From a virus: a stretch of 64,000 nucleotides of DNA. Below are positions 445-64,000 of the stretch, in pieces. The position numbers were made by a program, and so were the translations under genes. The notes beneath the pieces were generated by a model. That model saw only the letters and a program-made list of their open reading frames with translations. It searched no databases and was not told the DNA's origin. The stretch lies in the IMG/VR virus record IMGVR_UViG_3300032053_000025, positions 24,622-88,621 of that record; one strand, written 5' to 3'. The stretch's first letter is position 1; each line of letters opens with the position of its first letter.

Positions 445-584
445 TACATTATTATCCTCATAATGATTGGATTGAACATAAATTAGAAGGCACTCAATGT
501 ATTTGCGAACCTAAAATTGATTGGCATTTAGGTATAGTTATTCATAATTCTGCCGATGGCAGAGAAGAGAAGGAGAGTATATGA
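441..584 (+). CDS. small His/Cys-rich hypothetical protein (47 aa)
   Basis: Hand-translated MIHYYPHNDWIEH..CICEP..IVIHNSADGRE; ATGA overlaps with both neighbours. Confidence 0.6.
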   Translation: MIHYYPHNDWIEHKLEGTQCICEPKIDWHLGIVIHNSADGREEKESI

Positions 585-1804
585 TAATTTCAATTCACCA
601 GCCCGAGGCTTTCTGTCATTTATCCCTTTTAGATACAATATCTAAATCTGAGTTGTTTATTATTGGGGACGATTTTCAATATCAGAAATCGTACTTTGAC
701 AATCGCAATAAAATTCGATCCAACTCTAAAGAAGGCTGGTCATGGCTAACTATCCCCGTTCAAGCTTCCAACAATCATATTGCTATAAAGGATATTAAGG
801 TAGCTTCGGGTGATTGGAAGAATAAATTACTCAATCAATTAACATCGAGCTATCAACATGCTCCTTATTTTAATGTTTATTTTCCTCAATTGCAAGAATT
901 ATTGAAGACACAAAGCGAATACCTTATTGATTATACTTTACCTATACTACAATGGTTCCTACTCCAATTTAAAATTTATACTCCAATTAAATTAATGAGC
1001 AAATTAAATATCCAATCTGATAATGGTTCTGATAAGGTTTTGGAAATTTGTAAAAAGGTGGGAACAAATACTTACTTATCGGGTCCAAGTGGGAAGGATT
1101 ATCTGAATTTAGCTTCCTTTAAGGAAGCAGGAATAGACTTGCAGTATCATAATTATTTACATCCTTATTACCAATCATTTCCAAAGGTAGATATGCTCCC
1201 AGGCTTATCTGCTTTAGATTGTTTATTCTCACATGGACCAAACTCAAACAATATTATGCAGGCTAAAGGTATAGGTAGCATGGCTACAATTATGGGGAAT
1301 ATTGAATATAAACATAGGTCCATTCTTGAGGTATTTGGCGGGGATGGTACGGGCCAATTATCATCATATGGTAACACAGTTGATTGTTCTAATTTAACAA
1401 TATGGGAATTAGATTTGCAAAATGTATATAAACTTAGGGATAAATATCCTCATGCTAATGTTAAGCATGTTGATTCTTTAATTGAAGCCAAAAAGACTAA
1501 TCAAACCTTTGATATTATTATAATTGATACTCCGGCATTGATGTCTAACAATAAATTATTACCTCAAATATCAAACTTACTTACCGAGGATGAGGATGGA
1601 ATACTTATATTTAGAGCAATTAAACAATCGTGGAATAATCATCCTTCAGTGGAAGTTGACCAACCCATTGAATATTGGAAATTAATTTTTCAACAGGACT
1701 TTGATATTATTAATATGAAAGAAGTGCAAAGAGAATATTTTTGGAGTGAAGGTAAGTGGAAATTATGGTTAAGCAATTACCTTTTCCAATTAAGGAGGAT
1801 ATAA
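581..1804 (+). CDS. WbqC-family protein fused to class I SAM-methyltransferase-like domain
   Basis: ISIHQP, DDFQY..NRNKI, WLTIPV, Y.HAPYF, YLSGPSGKDYL, LSALDCLF (WbqC); C-terminal ILEVFGGDG, IWELD, FDIIIIDTP. Confidence 0.85.
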   Translation: MIISIHQPEAFCHLSLLDTISKSELFIIGDDFQYQKSYFDNRNKIRSNSKEGWSWLTIPVQASNNHIAIKDIKVASGDWKNKLLNQLTSSYQHAPYFNVYFPQLQELLKTQSEYLIDYTLPILQWFLLQFKIYTPIKLMSKLNIQSDNGSDKVLEICKKVGTNTYLSGPSGKDYLNLASFKEAGIDLQYHNYLHPYYQSFPKVDMLPGLSALDCLFSHGPNSNNIMQAKGIGSMATIMGNIEYKHRSILEVFGGDGTGQLSSYGNTVDCSNLTIWELDLQNVYKLRDKYPHANVKHVDSLIEAKKTNQTFDIIIIDTPALMSNNKLLPQISNLLTEDEDGILIFRAIKQSWNNHPSVEVDQPIEYWKLIFQQDFDIINMKEVQREYFWSEGKWKLWLSNYLFQLRRI

Positions 1805-1805
1805 A

Positions 1806-2717
1806 ATGAGTAAAATATTCAAGCCTTTTAAACTCCCTAATGACTCTGTAGATGTAAATACTCTACAATTCCCTTTATTAGCCAGCAGAAAGCTGGATGG
1901 ATTGAGACTAGTTGTCAACAAGGGTGGTATGTTTACTTGTTCATTAAAACAATTTCCCAATGTGCAATTGCAGGGCAGGTTCGAGCATTTAATGAAGATT
2001 TCCAGAGGACTAAATTTACTCTTAGATGGAGAATTATTAGCTAAGAGTTTAACTTTCTATGAATTAAGTGGGCTTTGCAGGAGGCTAGACGCACCCTTAC
2101 CAGAGGATTTATATTTTTATGCCTTTGATGCGGTACAAAACGAGCAATATGATATGGAGTTTAGCAAGAGGATATCTTATTTAGACAATATAGCAAAATA
2201 TTCTTATGTTAAGGTTCTAGAACAAAGATTAGTTAAATCTATAGAAGAAGTCTGGGCATTTTATGAAGAGGCATTAAAAGAAGGTCATTGTGATGGGCTA
2301 ATCTTGAGAAGCCCAATGGGTAGATATAAATGTGGTAGAGCAACTATCAATGAAGGTTTGGGATATAAATTAAAGCCATTCGAGACAATAGACTCCGCAA
2401 TTATAGGGGTTGTACAAGCAACTGAGGTAGATCCAAGGGCAGAAAAGACAATCAACGAGCTGGGGCGGAGTACAACCTCTAAGAAATTAGGGGATAGAAT
2501 TTTAATTGAAAAAGCCTCTGCTTTTGTTGTCAAGTATGAAGGAAAAGATTTGAAAGTTACTATTGCAATGACTGATATAGAGAAAGAAGAAATTTGGAAG
2601 AATAAGGATTCTTATATTGGAAGATGGATTGAATTCAAAGCCATGAGGGTGGGAATGCTTGAAGATGGTTTGCCAAGGCACCCCACAACCCTGAGAATGA
2701 GAACCGATAAAGACTAA
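1806..2717 (+). CDS. lig: ATP-dependent DNA ligase
   Basis: SRKLDGLR, LDGEL, FYAFD, DGLILR, Y..GR, KLKP, IEFK..PRHP motifs. Confidence 0.92.
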   Translation: MSKIFKPFKLPNDSVDVNTLQFPLLASRKLDGLRLVVNKGGMFTCSLKQFPNVQLQGRFEHLMKISRGLNLLLDGELLAKSLTFYELSGLCRRLDAPLPEDLYFYAFDAVQNEQYDMEFSKRISYLDNIAKYSYVKVLEQRLVKSIEEVWAFYEEALKEGHCDGLILRSPMGRYKCGRATINEGLGYKLKPFETIDSAIIGVVQATEVDPRAEKTINELGRSTTSKKLGDRILIEKASAFVVKYEGKDLKVTIAMTDIEKEEIWKNKDSYIGRWIEFKAMRVGMLEDGLPRHPTTLRMRTDKD

Positions 2718-2718
2718 T

Positions 2719-2931
2719 ATGCACTATATGCCTAAAAATACCAACTATTTAGCGATACTCGATAAGACCGAATCCATAGGCAAACAAATTAACGCAAATA
2801 AAATGATTGATTTGCGTATAGCAAGGGGCGGTTGTTTTGTTGCCCGTTATTATATTAAGACTGCAAAAATTAAAGGTATTGAAGTAGACTTAATGTATGA
2901 AGTCAAGATTTATGACAATCTGAAATCATAG
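2719..2931 (+). CDS. hypothetical protein
   Basis: ORF tightly packed in operon. Confidence 0.5.
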   Translation: MHYMPKNTNYLAILDKTESIGKQINANKMIDLRIARGGCFVARYYIKTAKIKGIEVDLMYEVKIYDNLKS

Positions 2932-2941
2932 GAGAATAATA

Positions 2942-3637
2942 ATGGAAATTAAGCAATACAAAGACTATCAAATCCAACTTCGATCCTCCTCAGATGCAGG
3001 AGTATTCCAAGAAATTATCATTAACAATTGTTATGGTATTGATTTTAAATGGTTTGATAAAGTAAAGACCATCATTGATATTGGTGGCCATATAGGTATA
3101 TTTAGTTTATTTATTGCTCCTTATGTTGATAAGATTTATACCTTTGAACCTTATTGGCAAAATTATAGATTATTGGTAGAAAATGTAGACCAGAATAATT
3201 TACTATCTAAAATTAAATGTCATCAAAAAGCAGTTACCCATTATGAAGGAGTAATTGATTTTTATGAATCTAAACAAACCCATGTAAGACATACTATTGT
3301 ACCTCCGGGGCAATTAAAATTTTGCGACCAAGGGGAGAAAATAATTGTGCCTTGCACTTCTCTCTTCAATATTATGTCTACTATTGGGCATCCAACCTTA
3401 TTGAAAATAGATATTGAAGGTGGAGAATATTCCTTACTATTCAATACACCCGAGCAAGCATTTAAAAATATTACTTACATTGTTATGGAAACTCACCATG
3501 ACGAATCTTCCCTTTTCAATAAAGACGATCTTATCAAAAAATTAGAAAGTTATGGCTACAAAGTTTCCTGGAAATTTAACTGGAAAGACCCAGACTATAA
3601 AATGACAACCGGAGATTTAATAGCCATAAAAGAATAG
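2942..3637 (+). CDS. FkbM-family methyltransferase
   Basis: IIDIGGHIGIFS, FEP, LLKIDIEGGEY, IVMETH. Confidence 0.92.
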   Translation: MEIKQYKDYQIQLRSSSDAGVFQEIIINNCYGIDFKWFDKVKTIIDIGGHIGIFSLFIAPYVDKIYTFEPYWQNYRLLVENVDQNNLLSKIKCHQKAVTHYEGVIDFYESKQTHVRHTIVPPGQLKFCDQGEKIIVPCTSLFNIMSTIGHPTLLKIDIEGGEYSLLFNTPEQAFKNITYIVMETHHDESSLFNKDDLIKKLESYGYKVSWKFNWKDPDYKMTTGDLIAIKE

Positions 3638-3644
3638 GAGTAAA

Positions 3645-4520
3645 ATGAGTTATAAACTCCAATTATTAAAAGAAAGTTTAATACCAATTACTGCCCAAGA
3701 TTTAATTAATATAGGTGGAATTCCACCTATAGACCCCACCAAACAAGTGGCTATTGTTATTGATTCCTTCCTTAGAGATAAATGTTTATTAATCCTCCTT
3801 AAAAGTATATTTAAATTCGCACCTCATTATAAAATTTATATTACAGGCCAGGGCATCTATAGTAAAGAGAAAGATGCCCTTTTTTGTTTATTGAAGGTAG
3901 CAGGCCATACCATAATTAATTGTGGCTTTGATGCAGGATTAGGTCAATGTCACAAAAAGATAGTAGAATTTGTGACTGAGCCTTATATATTTTTCTGCCA
4001 TGAGGACGCTTTATTTACTGATAAAACTAACTTAGAATCAATGGTTAATATAATCAAACTTAATAGATATAGATTAGGTTGGCTATCTCCTTCTTCCTTA
4101 TTCAATCAACCTTCCCATTTATTATTGAAAAATTTAAATTTAGCTATTACTCCTCTTGAAGTAGAATTTAAAAATAGTCATAGAGATCCATTTATTTGCG
4201 ATATTGCAGGTACTCAAGGTTTAGTTAAATCAACCTTATTTAGTTCAATCCAATATGATGCTCAATTTAAAATGAATGAAACTTTAGACTTAATGTTAAA
4301 CATGAAATTTAATACTGTTAATAGAGTAGCAATCACCAACCAATCTATATTATGGCATCAAGAACCTTGTGAGCATCCTATCTATCTTCAATATAAGCAT
4401 AGGGAATGGTATTATGACCAATTATTAAGGACTAAATGGCAATTTACAAGTATTAATGGAAGAAAAATTAAAAGGGATAATACTAAGTTTCTTTATGTTA
4501 TGGAGGAAAATAATGGATAA
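3645..4520 (+). CDS. GT-A fold (GT2-like) glycosyltransferase
   Basis: VAIVIDSFLR..L..LLKSI, FDAGL, PYIFFCHED, YDAQFK..E; paralogous to next gene. Confidence 0.65.
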   Translation: MSYKLQLLKESLIPITAQDLINIGGIPPIDPTKQVAIVIDSFLRDKCLLILLKSIFKFAPHYKIYITGQGIYSKEKDALFCLLKVAGHTIINCGFDAGLGQCHKKIVEFVTEPYIFFCHEDALFTDKTNLESMVNIIKLNRYRLGWLSPSSLFNQPSHLLLKNLNLAITPLEVEFKNSHRDPFICDIAGTQGLVKSTLFSSIQYDAQFKMNETLDLMLNMKFNTVNRVAITNQSILWHQEPCEHPIYLQYKHREWYYDQLLRTKWQFTSINGRKIKRDNTKFLYVMEENNG

Positions 4521-5268
4521 ATCTATCGCAGTAATTATGCCCTGCTTTAAACGTAACGAATTATTAGCCCAAACTGTAGAAACATATAAGCAATTTATGC
4601 CTAAAGATTGGGTATTATTAATTGGGGATCAAGACCCTTCTGAGGCTAAATTTAAGCAATATAATGCTGGCAATATTCATTATTATCCCCTCCCCTATGA
4701 TTGCGGGATTAGCTTAGCCAGAAATATGTTGATTAAAGAAGCCTCTAAATCAGGCTTCGAATACGGATTATTATCTGCCGATAGTATACCATTAATTAAA
4801 ACGCCGGATTTAACTCCATATATTGAATTCCTTAAAATGGATCCTAATCATGGAATTATCGGGCTTCCTACGAGCGATAATTTAAAGAAAGAGGATTTAT
4901 GGAATGCTAATTTGTCCATTGATTCTGAGGGAATTCATTTATGGCCCGCTAACGAGTATACCGAGTTTAATGGGATTAAATATAAGAAATGCCAGATTGT
5001 TAGCAATTTCTTTTTGTTTAAATTGCAATTAGCACTTGAGAACCCTTGGAGGGAGGAATTAAAATTAGCAGAGCATGAATCGTTTTTCATTGACCTAATG
5101 CAGAAAACTTTATACAAGGTTTTCCATACTCCCTATAGGTTCGCTACATATATTCAATCTCGACCACCAGATTATGATATTTATAGGCGAAGGTTGTATG
5201 ATACTTATATCCCGTTGCTTCGTAAACTTTATGGGCTGAGGGCCTGGATAATTTACCATAATCGTTAA
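4513..5268 (+). CDS. GT2-like glycosyltransferase
   Basis: IAVIMPCFKR, LIGDQ, LPYDCGISLARN, NFFL, W.EELKLAEHESFF; start MDKSI after GGAGG. Confidence 0.75.
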   Translation: MDKSIAVIMPCFKRNELLAQTVETYKQFMPKDWVLLIGDQDPSEAKFKQYNAGNIHYYPLPYDCGISLARNMLIKEASKSGFEYGLLSADSIPLIKTPDLTPYIEFLKMDPNHGIIGLPTSDNLKKEDLWNANLSIDSEGIHLWPANEYTEFNGIKYKKCQIVSNFFLFKLQLALENPWREELKLAEHESFFIDLMQKTLYKVFHTPYRFATYIQSRPPDYDIYRRRLYDTYIPLLRKLYGLRAWIIYHNR

Positions 5269-59165: not shown

Positions 59166-59756
59166 ATGGATGAGAATAATGGATTAAATGCTTCAGAGAC
59201 AGATTATAAGTTTATGGTTTATTTGGTGGGTAGTATGGAAAAAACTACTGCAAATGATGACGGTACGGCCCAGCGGGTTGAAGTGGAAAAAGAATTATTA
59301 TTAAGAAATATTTTTCCTATTAATCCCGTTAAATTAGAGGCAATTAAAACAGGCAGACCCACAGATGAAATGAAAGAAAAAATGAGGGGATGGATAGCCT
59401 CGGGCAATTGGGAATTGTTTAAAGAAGCTTCTTATGAGATATGGAAAGGTCGGGATATTATCACCGAAGATAGTAATTTATATCATGTTCCTGGAGATAT
59501 TGATTATGTTGCTATGTCAGATTTTATTATTTTTACATATCATAAAGGATCAAAACCATGCGGATCTTTCGGCGAGAGTTATGATTGTATGAGGCAAGGC
59601 AAACCTATTTATTTAGTCACAGATTTTTTAAAGGCAGAGTTGCCTGTAAGTTTGCTTCAATGGATTATGGTTTCAGAAGGAGAAGTATTTAATTCATTGT
59701 CAAAATTGTTAGATTTTATCGATAAAAAATATAAATTGCACAGGAAGGAGAAATAA
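59166..59756 (+). CDS. nucleoside 2-deoxyribosyltransferase-like protein
   Basis: VYLVGSM, INP, D..V..SDFII, GSFGE, GKPIY. Confidence 0.65.
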   Translation: MDENNGLNASETDYKFMVYLVGSMEKTTANDDGTAQRVEVEKELLLRNIFPINPVKLEAIKTGRPTDEMKEKMRGWIASGNWELFKEASYEIWKGRDIITEDSNLYHVPGDIDYVAMSDFIIFTYHKGSKPCGSFGESYDCMRQGKPIYLVTDFLKAELPVSLLQWIMVSEGEVFNSLSKLLDFIDKKYKLHRKEK

Positions 59757-60085
59757 TGGAGTTTGAAACTTACCAATATTTTGCTCGTAAAACTGCGGTA
59801 TTTCCCAAAGAATTCACAGTTATATATCCTGCAATGGGGGTAGCAAGTGAGTCTGGAGAATGTTTAGAGAAAATTAAAAAACAATTAAGAGATAAAAACT
59901 GTAATTGGGAAGATGTTGAGTTTAAAGAAAAAGTTGCAAAAGAAATGGGAGATGTATTATGGTATCTTGCTAATCTTGCTGAAGATTTAGGGATGAATTT
60001 AAATGATATTGCAGAACTCAATTTAAAAAAACTTAAAGATAGGCAGGATAGAGGAGTATTAAAAGGGGAAGGAGATAATAGATAA
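59756..60085 (+). CDS. MazG-like NTP pyrophosphohydrolase
   Basis: YQ..A.KTA, GVASESGE..EKIKK, KEMGDVLWY, N..KL.DR..RG...G.GDNR. Confidence 0.9.
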   Translation: MEFETYQYFARKTAVFPKEFTVIYPAMGVASESGECLEKIKKQLRDKNCNWEDVEFKEKVAKEMGDVLWYLANLAEDLGMNLNDIAELNLKKLKDRQDRGVLKGEGDNR

Positions 60086-60456
60086 TGAAAAATTTTGACA
60101 AGGTACAAGATAGCGGTAACCGCCGGGAATTTAATACCGGAAGTGTAAGAGATACCCGGGAGGGTAAGGGTAGGTTTGATTTAATTACCCCCATAGGGCT
60201 TAAAAGATTGGCCAAGCACTATGAAAATGGTGCAAAAAAATATGGGGATCGAAATTGGGAAAAAGGTCAACCATTATCTTGTTATTTAGATTCGCTTATT
60301 AGGCATGCCTATTGTTTATTGGAGGGAAAAAAAGACGAAGATCATGCCGCAGCTATAGCATGGAATGCTTTAGCCTATATACATACAGAAGAAATGATAA
60401 GTCAAGAAAAACTGCCCAAAGAATTAGACGATATGCCTATGAATAAAAAGGAGTAA
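60085..60456 (+). CDS. dATP/dGTP diphosphohydrolase domain protein (DUF5664)
   Basis: TGSVRD..GKGRFDL, GAKKYGDRNWEKG, DS.IRH, EDHAAAIAWN. Confidence 0.85.
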   Translation: MKNFDKVQDSGNRREFNTGSVRDTREGKGRFDLITPIGLKRLAKHYENGAKKYGDRNWEKGQPLSCYLDSLIRHAYCLLEGKKDEDHAAAIAWNALAYIHTEEMISQEKLPKELDDMPMNKKE

Positions 60457-60459
60457 ACA

Positions 60460-60807
60460 ATGTCTCGCCCAGAAGTATTGCAAGGATATACCACTAAGGT
60501 TAAAACTGGATGTGGGGCCTTATTTTTAACTATTAATTTTGACCAAGATAGGCCTTTTGAGATATTTCTCAATTCGTCAAAGTTAGGAGGTTGCTCGGGC
60601 AACCAAAATGCTATTGCAAGACTATTAACTTTATGTTTTAAAAATAATGTTTCTATCGAAGATATTGTAGATCAATTGCAAGGAATTTCTTGTCCTGCCT
60701 GTACAAGGGCCAAGGCAAAATTGGGAAAAGACGAGATTGTGGATTACCCCACTTCCTGTCCTGACGCAGTGGCTAGATTTATCAAGAAAATGGTGAAACA
60801 TGATTAA
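60460..60807 (+). CDS. stand-alone TSCPD domain (class II RNR C-terminal)
   Basis: RPEVL.G.T.KVKTGCG.L..TIN, PFEIF, KLGGC, QL.GI.C, TSCPDAVA. Confidence 0.88.
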   Translation: MSRPEVLQGYTTKVKTGCGALFLTINFDQDRPFEIFLNSSKLGGCSGNQNAIARLLTLCFKNNVSIEDIVDQLQGISCPACTRAKAKLGKDEIVDYPTSCPDAVARFIKKMVKHD

Positions 60808-60946: not shown

Positions 60947-61693
60947 ATGGATAACAATATTCAATTATATTTAGGAGATTGTTTAAAAATTATGCCTTCT
61001 TTGGCAGATAAATCTATAGATATGATTCTATGTGACCTCCCTTACGGAACGACTGCTTGTAAGTGGGATACTATAATTCCATTTGAACCTCTATGGGAGC
61101 AATATAAGAGAATTATTAAAGATAATGGGGCGATAGTATTAACTGCGAGCCAACCTTTTACGAGTGCTTTGGTGATGAGTAATGTGAAGATGTTTAAGTA
61201 TGAGTGGATATGGGAGAAACACAAAGGAACTAATTTTTTTGCAGTAAAAAGAGAACCACTTAAAATACACGAGTCGGTTTTAGTTTTTGGGGGCAAAAAG
61301 TATAACCCACAAATGATAGATGGGAAATCGTATAAACCAAGAGGTTCACACAATATAGTTAGAAGTCATAGCATTGTAAATGCCAATAAGAACATAGGAT
61401 ATTCAAAAGAATTTGACCCGTCTAAAAGATACCCTGTATCAATTCAAAAATTTTCTAATCATAATCAGAAAGAAAATTGTTTCCACCCCACCCAAAAGCC
61501 AGTAGCCCTATTTGAGTATCTTATCAAAACCTACACCAACGAAGGGGACTTAGTTTTAGATAATTGTATGGGGTCGGGAACCACTGGGGTTGCCTGTAAG
61601 AATCTCAACTGTAAATTCATAGGTATAGAAATGGATGAAAATTATATGAAGATAGCCACTGAAAGAATTAAAAATACCATTAAAGGAGTATAA
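60947..61693 (+). CDS. N6-A/N4-C DNA methyltransferase (beta class)
   Basis: GDCL, DLPYG, HPTQKP, LDNCMGSGTT. Confidence 0.93.
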   Translation: MDNNIQLYLGDCLKIMPSLADKSIDMILCDLPYGTTACKWDTIIPFEPLWEQYKRIIKDNGAIVLTASQPFTSALVMSNVKMFKYEWIWEKHKGTNFFAVKREPLKIHESVLVFGGKKYNPQMIDGKSYKPRGSHNIVRSHSIVNANKNIGYSKEFDPSKRYPVSIQKFSNHNQKENCFHPTQKPVALFEYLIKTYTNEGDLVLDNCMGSGTTGVACKNLNCKFIGIEMDENYMKIATERIKNTIKGV

Positions 61694-62706
61694 TGGAACA
61701 AAAAATAATACTCGTGGATTTCGGGCATTTCCAGCACACGGCCATATTTGCTAAAGCCTCCGCCATAAGGCGGCAAGAAGACATGGCTTTAACCAATCCT
61801 CAATTAGCTGAGCAAATGTTAGTTTTACCTTCTACTTATACATCTATGATGATGATTTTAACTGTTTTATCTAAGGTAGGTGTAAACTGCGATGTCGACG
61901 ATAAAATAATTATATGCTGTGATGGCAGGCACTCATGGCGAAAAAATTTAGAAATTCAATATAAATTTATGAGGCAAACTGTAAGGGAGCAATGTACTGA
62001 AGTAAATTGGCTTAATGAATATGAATATCAAAACCAACTTCTACACACAATCGACGATAATACACCATTCTTCGTTATTCATGGACACGAAGGCTTAGAA
62101 GCCGATGATTGGATTGCTGAAGCTTGCAGAGTATTCAAAGACCAAGAAGTTGTAATTATAGGTAGAGATAGTGATTATCATCAATTATTAAATTTAGATA
62201 ATGTTAAAATTTATAATCCTCATGGTTCAGCAAAGAAATGTCCGTATAAAATTTTATCCTTAAATAGGGAGAAGGAAAAACAATTAGCATATAAATCCCT
62301 TATTCATAAAATTAAAAAAGAAGCTACAGATGGTTTAACTTCAGAAGTATTAACCGAAAAAGAAAATCAAATTAGAAGGCAGATTGTATCTTTATTGGAG
62401 TTACCTCAAGATATTGTAGATAGAATGAGACCTACTTTGGAAGATATTGGAAGGTCAACCAAAGAACATTTGAATTTAGAAGCATTCACTCCAGGTATAA
62501 GAAAATTATTCCCCAAGATTTGGGATGAAAAATATAAAATAACATACCATGATTGTTATCAGAGATTGGTTAATAAGCAGTTAAGGGAAGATAAAAAGAA
62601 GGCTAAATTAAAAGAGGATAAAAAGAAAGCTAAACTAAAGGAGAAATTATGTATGTTACAGGGGGCTTCGGAAATCAATGGACAGGCGACGAAGCAATTG
62701 ATTTAG
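61693..62706 (+). CDS. 5'-3' exonuclease / T4 RNase H-like
   Basis: ILVD, CCDG.SWRK..YK..R, LEADD, DSDYHQL. Confidence 0.85.
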   Translation: MEQKIILVDFGHFQHTAIFAKASAIRRQEDMALTNPQLAEQMLVLPSTYTSMMMILTVLSKVGVNCDVDDKIIICCDGRHSWRKNLEIQYKFMRQTVREQCTEVNWLNEYEYQNQLLHTIDDNTPFFVIHGHEGLEADDWIAEACRVFKDQEVVIIGRDSDYHQLLNLDNVKIYNPHGSAKKCPYKILSLNREKEKQLAYKSLIHKIKKEATDGLTSEVLTEKENQIRRQIVSLLELPQDIVDRMRPTLEDIGRSTKEHLNLEAFTPGIRKLFPKIWDEKYKITYHDCYQRLVNKQLREDKKKAKLKEDKKKAKLKEKLCMLQGASEINGQATKQLI

Positions 62707-62829
62707 TTATTTTGAGGATAGGATATAATAAAGAAGACCGAAGTTTGTATTTTACTTTGGGTGCGTTTGGAGTTGGATTTTCTATAGAGATAAACTTTGA
62801 GGAGGAGTAAAATAAAAAGGAGGAATAAA

Positions 62830-62994
62830 ATGGAAGATTTTATAAGAGGTATAGTAGTTGCTCATGAGAATGGATTAATGAGTCCTGCTTTAGCATCGTT
62901 TTATATCCGAATGAAAGCAGAATCCGAAGTGGACGGACTTGGGGTGAGTATGGCCGAATTAGAAATGATCGCTAAGAGAAATAAAGTATATTAA
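62830..62994 (+). CDS. hypothetical protein
   Basis: ATG after AGGAGG. Confidence 0.5.
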   Translation: MEDFIRGIVVAHENGLMSPALASFYIRMKAESEVDGLGVSMAELEMIAKRNKVY

Positions 62995-63006
62995 AAGGAG
63001 GATTAA

Positions 63007-63264
63007 GTGGAACTAAAAGAAGTATTAGCAAAAATAATAGCAATCATAGCAGAAGTAAAAGAAGCAGGATTAGATACAATCAAGCAAGAAATGAAATTAG
63101 ACGAATTGGGCATTGATATGCTTGATGGTACAGAAATTGCATTAATGTTGGAAGATGAGTTTCAACTTTCTATTCCCGTTGATGATGCTGAGGAGTGGAA
63201 AACTGTAATGGATATGGTTAATTATATTCAGGCTAGACAGAATAACGAATCTCCACATAATTAA
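63007..63264 (+). CDS. acpP: acyl carrier protein homolog lacking the phosphopantetheine Ser
   Basis: IIAE..ELGIDMLD.TEI.LMLEDEF..SIP.DDAE..KTV.D.VNYI; canonical DSL is DML. Confidence 0.8.
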   Translation: MELKEVLAKIIAIIAEVKEAGLDTIKQEMKLDELGIDMLDGTEIALMLEDEFQLSIPVDDAEEWKTVMDMVNYIQARQNNESPHN

Positions 63265-63297
63265 ATATTGAAATTTCAAGTTGAAAGGAGGAATCAT

Positions 63298-63411
63298 ATG
63301 GATGAAAAAGTAGTCGAGGTTAAGGAAGAAGTGAAAGTAAAAAGAGGAAGAGGCAGGCCTTCGGGATCTAAAAATAAGAAAGGAACTAAGGCGAATCCTA
63401 TAGTCGCCTAA
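63298..63411 (+). CDS. 37-aa AT-hook peptide
   Basis: AAGGAGG RBS; KRGRGRPSGSKNK. Confidence 0.65.
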   Translation: MDEKVVEVKEEVKVKRGRGRPSGSKNKKGTKANPIVA

Positions 63412-63634
63412 TCTAACGATTAATTAACAGTAATCTACCGATTAAAGGAGAAATAAATTGGATAACAAAACGATTAAAAATATAGCCATAGCAGTTGGGG
63501 CTATAGTGATAGGGTTGTTTTTGGTTATGGGCAGGCATTATGTAGTGTTGGTATTGGAATTGATATGTGCAGGAGTATATTTCGGTACCGATATATTTAA
63601 CAAATAAAAGCAAAATAAACAAGGAGGATTATAA

Positions 63635-64000
63635 GTGCTATTATTGAGGATAGGTAAGACAAAATTGGAATGTAAAAAGCAGGATAACACGGTAAAGCAG
63701 TTTAAGGCTAATGCGGCATCTATTGCTAAAGCCAAATCTGATTTTAAGATTGGAGATGCAATATTCTGCAAGTTTGATCCTACAACGTTCGAGATTATTG
63801 AAATTAGCAAGCCTGAAGCCAAAGGTACTTATAATGGCGGAAAAGGTGGCTATAATGGGAAGAAATCCTTTGGAGGAACCTATAATACTAAGCCTATGGT
63901 ATTTGGAAGTGTACTCAATCTAATTTCAAATTTTGTTGAGGCTAAGGTAATTAAGACTGTAAAAGAAGCTAAAGAAGCCATAACTGAGCTTATGGCTCAG
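63635..64000 (+). CDS. hypothetical protein (3' truncated)
   Basis: GTG after AAGGAGG; frame open to window end; Gly-rich linker. Confidence 0.55.
   Translation, partial: MLLLRIGKTKLECKKQDNTVKQFKANAASIAKAKSDFKIGDAIFCKFDPTTFEIIEISKPEAKGTYNGGKGGYNGKKSFGGTYNTKPMVFGSVLNLISNFVEAKVIKTVKEAKEAITELMAQ

Follow-up and report, generated by a model that had tools for sequence, protein, structure and literature searches.

We report a phage-encoded acyl carrier protein (ACP) in which the serine that normally receives the phosphopantetheine cofactor has been replaced by methionine, and comparison with its close relatives indicates that this substitution is fixed under purifying selection. The gene lies in a 64,000-nucleotide stretch of DNA, here called the window. 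It covers bases 24622-88621 of a virus record that is 88,621 bp long and whose completeness is rated at 95 %. Since no hydroxyl is left at the attachment site the protein is predicted to be non-modifiable, and because the site for cofactor attachment is lost, acyl carriage by this protein should be impossible. We infer that it acts by binding; that it has a partner, which protein this would be and how the host would be affected are put forward as proposals built on the sequence and its comparison with known ACPs.

Our preferred reading, to which we assign a probability of about 0.4, is that the protein is a carrier-dead ACP mimic that works by binding other proteins, the most likely targets being ACP-dependent enzymes of the host. 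We favour a mimic or decoy because the protein retains the ACP fold and an acidic helix II, whereas carrier function and phage-encoded loading enzymes are absent. The following sections present the gene and its predicted product, the maintenance of the methionine, the residue found at the same position in other phages, and the genomic setting, together with the alternative explanations on which each of these bears.

An ACP-like gene with methionine at the attachment site

The ACP-like gene occupies positions 63007-63264 on the plus strand of the window and encodes 85 amino acids from a GTG start. A Shine-Dalgarno sequence, AAGGAGG (62995-63001, plus strand), stands 5 nt ahead of this start. 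The predicted product has 20 acidic residues against 7 basic ones, a net charge of about -13 and a pI of 4.1, and contains no cysteine.

At the position of the phosphopantetheine serine the protein has Met38, encoded by the ATG at 63118-63120 (plus strand) within the peptide LGIDMLD. In the three HMMER alignments printed, Met38 faces the serine of LGADSLD in the ACPs of known structure 1x3o, 1hy8 and 2ehs. A preliminary description of this DNA had noted the change from LGxDSLD to LGIDMLD and had placed the ATG at 63118-63120, as the list of open reading frames (ORFs) and the alignments with solved ACPs now confirm; its further remark that ATG is two substitutions away from any serine codon (TCN, AGT or AGC) follows from the sequence. 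The same ATG was considered as the internal start of a shorter gene and rejected, since residues 1-37 match helix I and loop I of ACP in the profiles.

Family membership and predicted fold

Profile searches place the product among the ACPs. The Pfam PP-binding family (PF00550) matches residues 9-74 over profile positions 2-67 of 67, with an E-value of 1.7e-10 and 41.4 bits against a cut-off of 20.8. PHROG 5934, annotated as 'acyl carrier protein', matches residues 20-80 (E = 2.9e-10), and the only PHROG families matched are ACPs or families of unknown function. Sequence searches of the PDB returned 129 distinct chains at E <= 1, and the 60 listed are all ACPs. The best NCBIfam match, NF002150, reaches 57 bits against a cut-off of 66, TIGR00517 gives 50.3 bits against 70.45, and every curated NCBIfam ACP cut-off is missed. 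With 19.4 bits for the DltC model, the scores indicate that the protein is AcpP-like rather than DltC-like.

An AlphaFold2 model computed from a 91-sequence alignment has a mean pLDDT of 82.3 and predicts the four-helix bundle of ACPs, with helices at residues 3-18, 38-52, 58-63 and 67-80. The DSSP assignment of the second of these makes Met38 the first residue of helix II, the recognition helix (residues 38-52; 63118-63162, plus strand). A Foldseek comparison of the model with the PDB gave 1x3o as the lead match (TM 0.84/0.89, rmsd 1.4 Å) and 36 matches at E <= 0.001, with only ACPs among the matches listed.

Column statistics were computed over 85 single-domain homologues, the methionine lineage being excluded. 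Their attachment column contains Ser in 77 cases, Asp and Glu in 3 each, and Leu and Thr in 1 each. Methionine occurs in none, and in this alignment it is confined to the window lineage; the protein thus departs from the PP-binding D-S-L pattern at the serine itself, where it has Met38. Elsewhere it carries the majority residue at D37, L39, D40, E43, E49, E51, F52, I56 and P57, and also at A61, E62, T66, V67, D69 and Y73. The acidic surface of helix II is present (D37, D40, E43, E49, D50 and E51), and on these grounds we consider that the ACP docking face is retained. Three residues are unusual: T42 stands where 67 % of the homologues have Val, L46 where 72 % have Met, and V58 where 81 % have Asp, which suggests that the area next to the lost attachment site has grown more hydrophobic. 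The protein had earlier been called an otherwise canonical AcpP. That wording holds for the first nine of the majority residues given above and fails at T42, L46 and V58 and in the score, which lies below every NCBIfam ACP cut-off.

Maintenance of the methionine

In an index of 5.8 billion proteins two clusters lie close to the window ACP, one at 98 % and the other at 95 % identity. The lineage comprises seven records, including the window's own, drawn from JGI, ENA and Logan and carried on contigs of 721 to 88,775 nt, the longest of which holds P0154. All seven read LGIDMLD in an intact frame. They represent five distinct protein variants, with the changes A20V, T24A, Q27R, T42A, A45S, E63G and N80K, and the alanine at position 42 is found in three of the seven (P0001, P0002 and P0156). 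A search of IMG/VR returned no close relative of the window ACP except its own record.

A metagenome scan found a single relative contig, L002, of 1,380 nt. The window ORF and this 95 % relative differ at 11 sites, 8 synonymous and 3 non-synonymous, and the resulting dN/dS of 0.08 (Nei-Gojobori) refers to this single sequence pair and its 11 differences. Under neutrality the binomial probability of at most 3 non-synonymous changes among 11 is 2e-4. Contigs from four other sediment-metagenome runs (X2 to X5) were also compared with the region. The codon at 63118-63120 is covered by contigs of X2, X3 and X4, whereas that of X5 does not reach it. The covering contig of X3 has six differences, all of them listed and none at the codon; those of X2 and X4 have one unlisted difference each, and since one change cannot turn ATG into a serine codon, the codon is not serine there either. 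These runs may share an origin with the protein records and are for that reason not counted as fully independent.

On this comparative evidence, both sequencing error and gene decay are effectively excluded. The preliminary description had judged a read error unlikely and had named two results as grounds for giving up the idea, namely serine in the raw reads or in all close homologues, and a dN/dS indicative of decay. Both came out in its favour: the homologues of the lineage have methionine (7/7 records), with the codon unchanged in X2, X3 and X4, and the dN/dS is low. It is accordingly very improbable that the gene is left over from a phage ACP that used to be functional and now decays or evolves neutrally. 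Such a remnant would account for the loss of the essential serine and for NCBIfam scores below the cut-offs, but not for a frame that is intact in seven of seven records and five variants, the low dN/dS, a confident model (pLDDT 82.3) or the strong Shine-Dalgarno sequence that has been kept.

Of still lower probability, and the least likely of the explanations considered, is that the protein remains a carrier by way of another residue or another chemistry. General similarity to ACPs is the one point in its favour. T42, the sole nearby hydroxyl, is replaced by alanine in three of the seven records, cysteines are lacking, and no transferase was found in the phage. The earlier characterization as a non-modifiable ACP follows from the sequence, given a site without hydroxyl and a substitution that is fixed.

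The attachment residue in other phage and metagenomic ACPs

Tabulating the residue in phage homologues, a check that had been proposed beforehand, was carried out on 22 deposited phage ACP homologues. Serine is present in 12, glutamate in 6 and aspartate in 4, so that 10 of the 22 lack serine. The first 15 were obtained by three tblastn searches and comprise 12 sequences with Ser and 3 with Glu. The three with Glu are from Serratia phage phiMAM1, Serratia phage KNP4 and an uncultured 636-kb phage (LR756504, L012), which at 109589-109738 encodes LNIDELD. One of the 12 sequences with serine, that of 'Acinetobacter phage MD-2021a', adjoins fabG and may be bacterial DNA.

The Ackermannviridae were sampled more widely. 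PhiSH19 and six further sequences, chosen from 25 spread records listed of 271, were aligned with phiMAM1, giving eight. With KNP4, all nine Ackermannviridae sampled lack serine, read D-[DE]-L-D and keep the acidic residues of helix II. Aspartate occupies the serine site in PhiSH19, Mutine, EP75 and CRW-SP2, and glutamate in phiD3, KpS110, CAU_YEP3, phiMAM1 and KNP4 (Miltonvirus); the records are JX878496, KX452697, JN126049, KM209228, NC_049428, NC_047932, OR464140, NC_049433 and PQ863687 (our L011, L013 and L022-L028). The PhiSH19 type occurs in 271 deposited phage records and the phiMAM1 type in 7. For seven of the ten Ser-less phage ACPs the gene is annotated as 'acyl carrier protein' or as 'hypothetical protein', and the remaining three, KNP4 and LR756504 among them, have no annotation at the gene.

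A representative search was evaluated over its best 150 matches, which contained 183 domains in 149 proteins. Serine was found in 159 domains and another residue in 24, two of them methionines of the window lineage; the sample is slightly biased because its ranking follows similarity to a query that itself lacks serine. Eight metagenomic proteins (P0061, P0075, P0081, P0093, P0095, P0114, P0118 and P0123) are single-domain ACPs of 78-92 aa with Asp, Glu, Leu or Thr at the serine site. P0093 is encoded on an 89,546-nt contig, close in size to the window phage, and P0075 and P0095 on contigs of 8-12 kb; P0075 and P0093 are likewise absent from IMG/VR. A quick tree of 91 ACP homologues places the methionine lineage in one clade (99 SH-aLRT, stem of 1.08 changes per column), and as 65 of its 88 inner branches are open it names no sister for this lineage and gives no count of serine losses.

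Published accounts of phage ACPs, in the parts available, describe them as rare and of unknown role (PMC7760394, PMC13573597) or merely tabulate them (PMC3220722, PMC10892097). The available text of this literature contains no statement of a missing serine and assigns no function. Serine loss in phage ACP homologues thus appears to be recurrent and unremarked.

Genome context

The ends of the record overlap by 143 nt at 98.6 % identity (contig G000:C1, 1-143 against 88479-88621, the latter being window 63858-64000). This overlap implies that the genome of about 88.5 kb, although classed as 'linear' in the record, is closed or terminally redundant. An ORF that leaves the window at 64000 resumes at the start of the contig.

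On the 5′ side of the ACP-like gene are genes for MazG, a dATP/dGTP diphosphohydrolase-like protein, TSCPD, an N6/N4 DNA methylase and a 5′-3′ exonuclease. Three small ORFs without a family match follow on its 3′ side, and across the junction come HNH, PD-(D/E)XK, intein-containing primase-polymerase, RecA, methylase, PolB, Dam and SbcCD-like genes. Tape-measure and tail genes form a block on the opposite strand. Directly 3′ of the ACP-like gene, a 37-aa ORF (63298-63411, plus strand) combines an acidic N-terminal half with a basic RGRGRPSGSKNKKG tail that bears an RGRGRP motif; it has no Pfam or PHROG match, is co-inherited with the ACP-like gene, and we label it AT-hook-like. A hydrophobic ORF of 49 aa (63458-63607, plus strand) also has no match in Pfam or PHROG. 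No terminator-like site was found on the plus strand within 61500-64000.

A mosaic breakpoint is located at 62992, just ahead of the ribosome-binding site of the ACP-like gene, with relatives alike to its right and different to its left. L002 aligns to the window from 62992 on only, the region 63298-63411 falling within the shared stretch of 95.5 % identity, and the contigs of X2, X4 and X5 show loose ends at 62992. To the left of this position L002 and the contigs of X2, X4 and X5 carry different genes.

Enzymes that would load or use a carrier were sought in the phage. The 88,621-bp record gave no match to phosphopantetheinyl transferase (PF01648) or to the AMP-binding/adenylating family (PF00501), and comparison of 50 ORFs with Pfam or PHROGs revealed no acyl-handling enzymes or fab genes. 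Clues to the host were also sought. No tRNAs were found, PolB is at most 25 % identical to its counterparts in deposited phages, a genome scan with the IspD-SDR fusion described below gave matches of 26-29 % only, and the Atlas look-alikes of the window ACP are generic ACP clusters. In the arm that holds the ACP-like gene, 14 of 18 plus-strand ORFs have a Shine-Dalgarno 5-mer within 20 nt 5′ of the start. This and a GC content of 34 % suggest a low-GC host that uses Shine-Dalgarno sequences.

Several other features of the genome were recorded. A sugar/polyol-phosphate cluster spans G000:C1 19062-24418 (L004) and window 581-5268 and comprises a fusion of an IspD-type cytidylyltransferase with a short-chain dehydrogenase, presumably CDP-ribitol-synthase-like, together with LicD, three GT2 glycosyltransferases, a WbqC-like protein and an FkbM methyltransferase. 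The cluster could serve modification of the host envelope or hypermodification of the phage DNA. Teichoic-acid-type enzymes are listed for DNA modification in Table 2 of the SP-15 paper, as far as its text was available (PMC5977210). The primase-polymerase (1,059 aa, G000:C1 1753-4932, L003) contains an intein with a LAGLIDADG endonuclease domain. MazG, the dATP/dGTP diphosphohydrolase-like protein (PF18909) and TSCPD are encoded in a row at window 59756-60807. A MazZ-like gene had prompted the idea of a Z-genome with 2-aminoadenine, which was dropped as the genome contains no match to a PurZ-type adenylosuccinate synthetase. Three DNA methyltransferases, two of N6/N4 type and one of Dam type, are encoded at window 60947-61693 and at G000:C1 8026-8889 and 11651-12103.

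This setting bears on a second explanation, in which the ACP fold serves as a small acidic structural module, as it does in the apicomplexan complex of mitochondrial ACP with Isd11 and Nfs1, and the protein would be an adaptor in, or a subunit of, a complex that the phage encodes or hijacks. Such a complex might be the replication, repair or modification machinery encoded alongside, or the virion. We regard this as a possible explanation, though not a probable one. The gene stands amid FEN-like exonuclease, HNH, PD-(D/E)XK, primase-polymerase, RecA, PolB and SbcCD-like genes and is co-inherited with the small ORFs downstream. The Ser-less mitochondrial ACP (mACP) of P. falciparum is, in the available text of its description, an essential binding subunit and no inhibitor (PMC8547962). 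Phage 'ACPs' have moreover been reported from virion preparations analysed by mass spectrometry, in Eneladusvirus (PMC7760394) and as Sajous1 gp186, the latter from one retrieved peptide (PMC10892097), both sources being available in part. Against this explanation, the phage genome has no LYR-type protein (PF05347, 0 matches at E <= 1), nor do Pfam and PHROG recognise an ACP-binding family among the neighbours. The gene upstream has been exchanged in relatives, which means that the ACP-like gene is not tied to one particular neighbour there.

The charge of the protein and the accessory character of the region raise a third explanation, which we consider unlikely, namely a small acidic nucleic-acid mimic or anti-defence protein that would bind a DNA-binding protein of the host, for example an SMC-type complex or a nuclease of restriction or defence. 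Phage DNA mimics and the contact between AcpP and MukB provide parallels. The pI of 4.1, the 20 acidic against 7 basic residues, the mosaic breakpoint and the three DNA methyltransferases would all fit. Yet the acidity is not new: it is at the level of an ordinary AcpP, and the homologues have the same acidic consensus. Known anti-defence families were also unmatched in the PHROG search. What probability remains is left to a reading outside those listed here.

Proposed mode of action

We return to the preferred reading, a carrier-dead mimic. A mimic or decoy had been suggested in the preliminary description, and the part of that suggestion that concerns the protein itself has held, with fold and helix II kept and loading enzymes absent, while the binding of a partner is carried forward here as a proposal. 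The mimic would be expressed from the arm of the phage genome given to replication and host interaction. Through its acidic helix II it would attach to at least one ACP-binding protein of the host, candidates being holo-ACP synthase, an acyltransferase of phospholipid synthesis and a Fab enzyme, and the mimic would then sit on its client as a dead-end competitor. Met38, with the unusual Val58 and Thr42, would form a small hydrophobic patch at the point where the phosphopantetheine arm leaves an ordinary ACP. By analogy with Phe113 of the parasite protein, Met38 together with Val58 may replace the arm by a hydrophobic contact. The outcome would be a block or a redirection of host lipid metabolism or other ACP-dependent metabolism during infection.

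A mosaic breakpoint and small unmatched ORFs are a setting typical of accessory host-interaction genes, and the position of the ACP-like gene at such a breakpoint, among such ORFs, was counted in favour of the mimic. Support also comes from what is reported of unmodified ACP. According to the available part of a review, apo-ACP inhibits glycerol-3-phosphate acyltransferase more than holo-ACP does and can stop growth, and unmodified ACP has been reported to be growth-inhibitory in E. coli (PMC3896788). The stronger inhibition of the acyltransferase by apo-ACP supports a toxic, apo-like decoy, and the P. falciparum mACP, which works without the serine and purely by binding, is a precedent for a protein that acts through binding only.

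Other observations count against the mimic. SpoT does not bind apo-ACP, as stated in the same part of that review (PMC3896788), so that binding can be lost together with the arm instead of being preserved, and SpoT, which had earlier been suggested as a partner, is an unlikely one. With V58, T42 and L46 and with NCBIfam scores below the cut-offs, the protein may no longer fit the canonical clients of ACP. In addition, the gene lies between the 5′-3′ exonuclease gene and the HNH, PD-(D/E)XK and primase genes, with no lipid-related neighbours.

Significance

ACP is among the most connected proteins of the bacterial cell. A protein that keeps the ACP docking face but is permanently unable to be loaded would lend itself directly to probing or inhibiting the ACP interactome, and would also represent a new type of host-takeover factor. 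The loss of serine is not a one-off, as the counts of 10 of 22 deposited phage ACP homologues and 9 of 9 sampled Ackermannviridae attest. The presence of Ser-less ACPs in cultured enterobacterial phages means that the question is directly testable in phages of E. coli and Salmonella.

A broader and more speculative proposal, which we hold to be doubtful, is that carrier-dead ACP mimics form a widespread and repeatedly arisen class of phage proteins for host takeover or counter-defence. Such a class would come in two flavours. One would have a hydrophobic plug, with Met in the present protein and Leu in one metagenomic protein; the other would be acidic, with Asp or Glu in the Ackermannviridae and several metagenomic proteins, and would imitate the phosphate of the missing arm. 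If this is true, each mimic would lock onto one particular host ACP client, whose activity it would either stop or divert. The first hydrophobic plug of this class would then be that of the window protein, and a model that can be cultured would be available in the enterobacterial Ackermannviridae.

Comparison with known systems

Bacterial AcpP (PF00550, TIGR00517) is similar in length and shares the four-helix fold, the D-x-L-D frame and the acidic helix II with loop II; the best homologues in this comparison are 35-49 % identical to the window ACP. It differs in having the cofactor serine in place of methionine. The window protein, in turn, scores under the equivalog cut-offs and is unusual at T42, L46 and V58, and its phage is without fab genes among the 50 ORFs scanned.

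Among phages, the Ser-containing ACPs of Ralstonia phage RP13 and Yersinia phage fHe-Yen9-04 belong to the same PHROG 5934 as the window ACP. Matches of this type are the best that it has in phages, with 39-44 % identity over 54-66 % of its length, and they differ in that the serine is kept (LGADSIE in RP13, LELDSLD in fHe-Yen9-04). The ACPs of the Ackermannviridae, represented by Salmonella phage PhiSH19 and Serratia phage phiMAM1, resemble the window ACP in being phage-encoded and without serine and in keeping an acidic helix II. They differ in their charged Asp or Glu and in their enterobacterial hosts, and the PhiSH19 type also has a greater length (103-113 aa) and diverges in its C-terminal half. 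Pairwise BLASTP between these two ACPs and the window ACP gives weak scores of 24.6 and 26.6 bits. With D-M-L-D in place of D-[DE]-L-D and no close relatedness, the window protein does not belong to the Ackermannviridae type.

A further parallel lies outside bacteria and their viruses. In the mitochondrial ACP of P. falciparum the serine is replaced by Phe113, and the protein is unmodifiable and essential; it binds Isd11, and Phe113 contributes to the interface together with conserved acidic residues (PMC8547962, eLife 2021, in the text available). The available part of that paper also states that its authors found no Ser-less ACPs outside Apicomplexa and Vitrella (PMC8547962), and in the literature available to us in part the apicomplexan mitochondrial ACP is the one described precedent that was found. 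Shared with the window protein are a hydrophobic, unmodifiable residue in place of serine and its retention under selection. The apicomplexan protein differs in being eukaryotic and organellar and in having the LYR protein Isd11 as its partner, while the window phage is without a LYR match. The losses of serine in apicomplexans and in this phage are probably independent. With the serine replaced and the replacement retained under selection, the window protein has, as far as sequence can tell, the marks of a phosphopantetheine-independent ACP, a kind of protein previously described in apicomplexan organelles only and here encoded by a phage.
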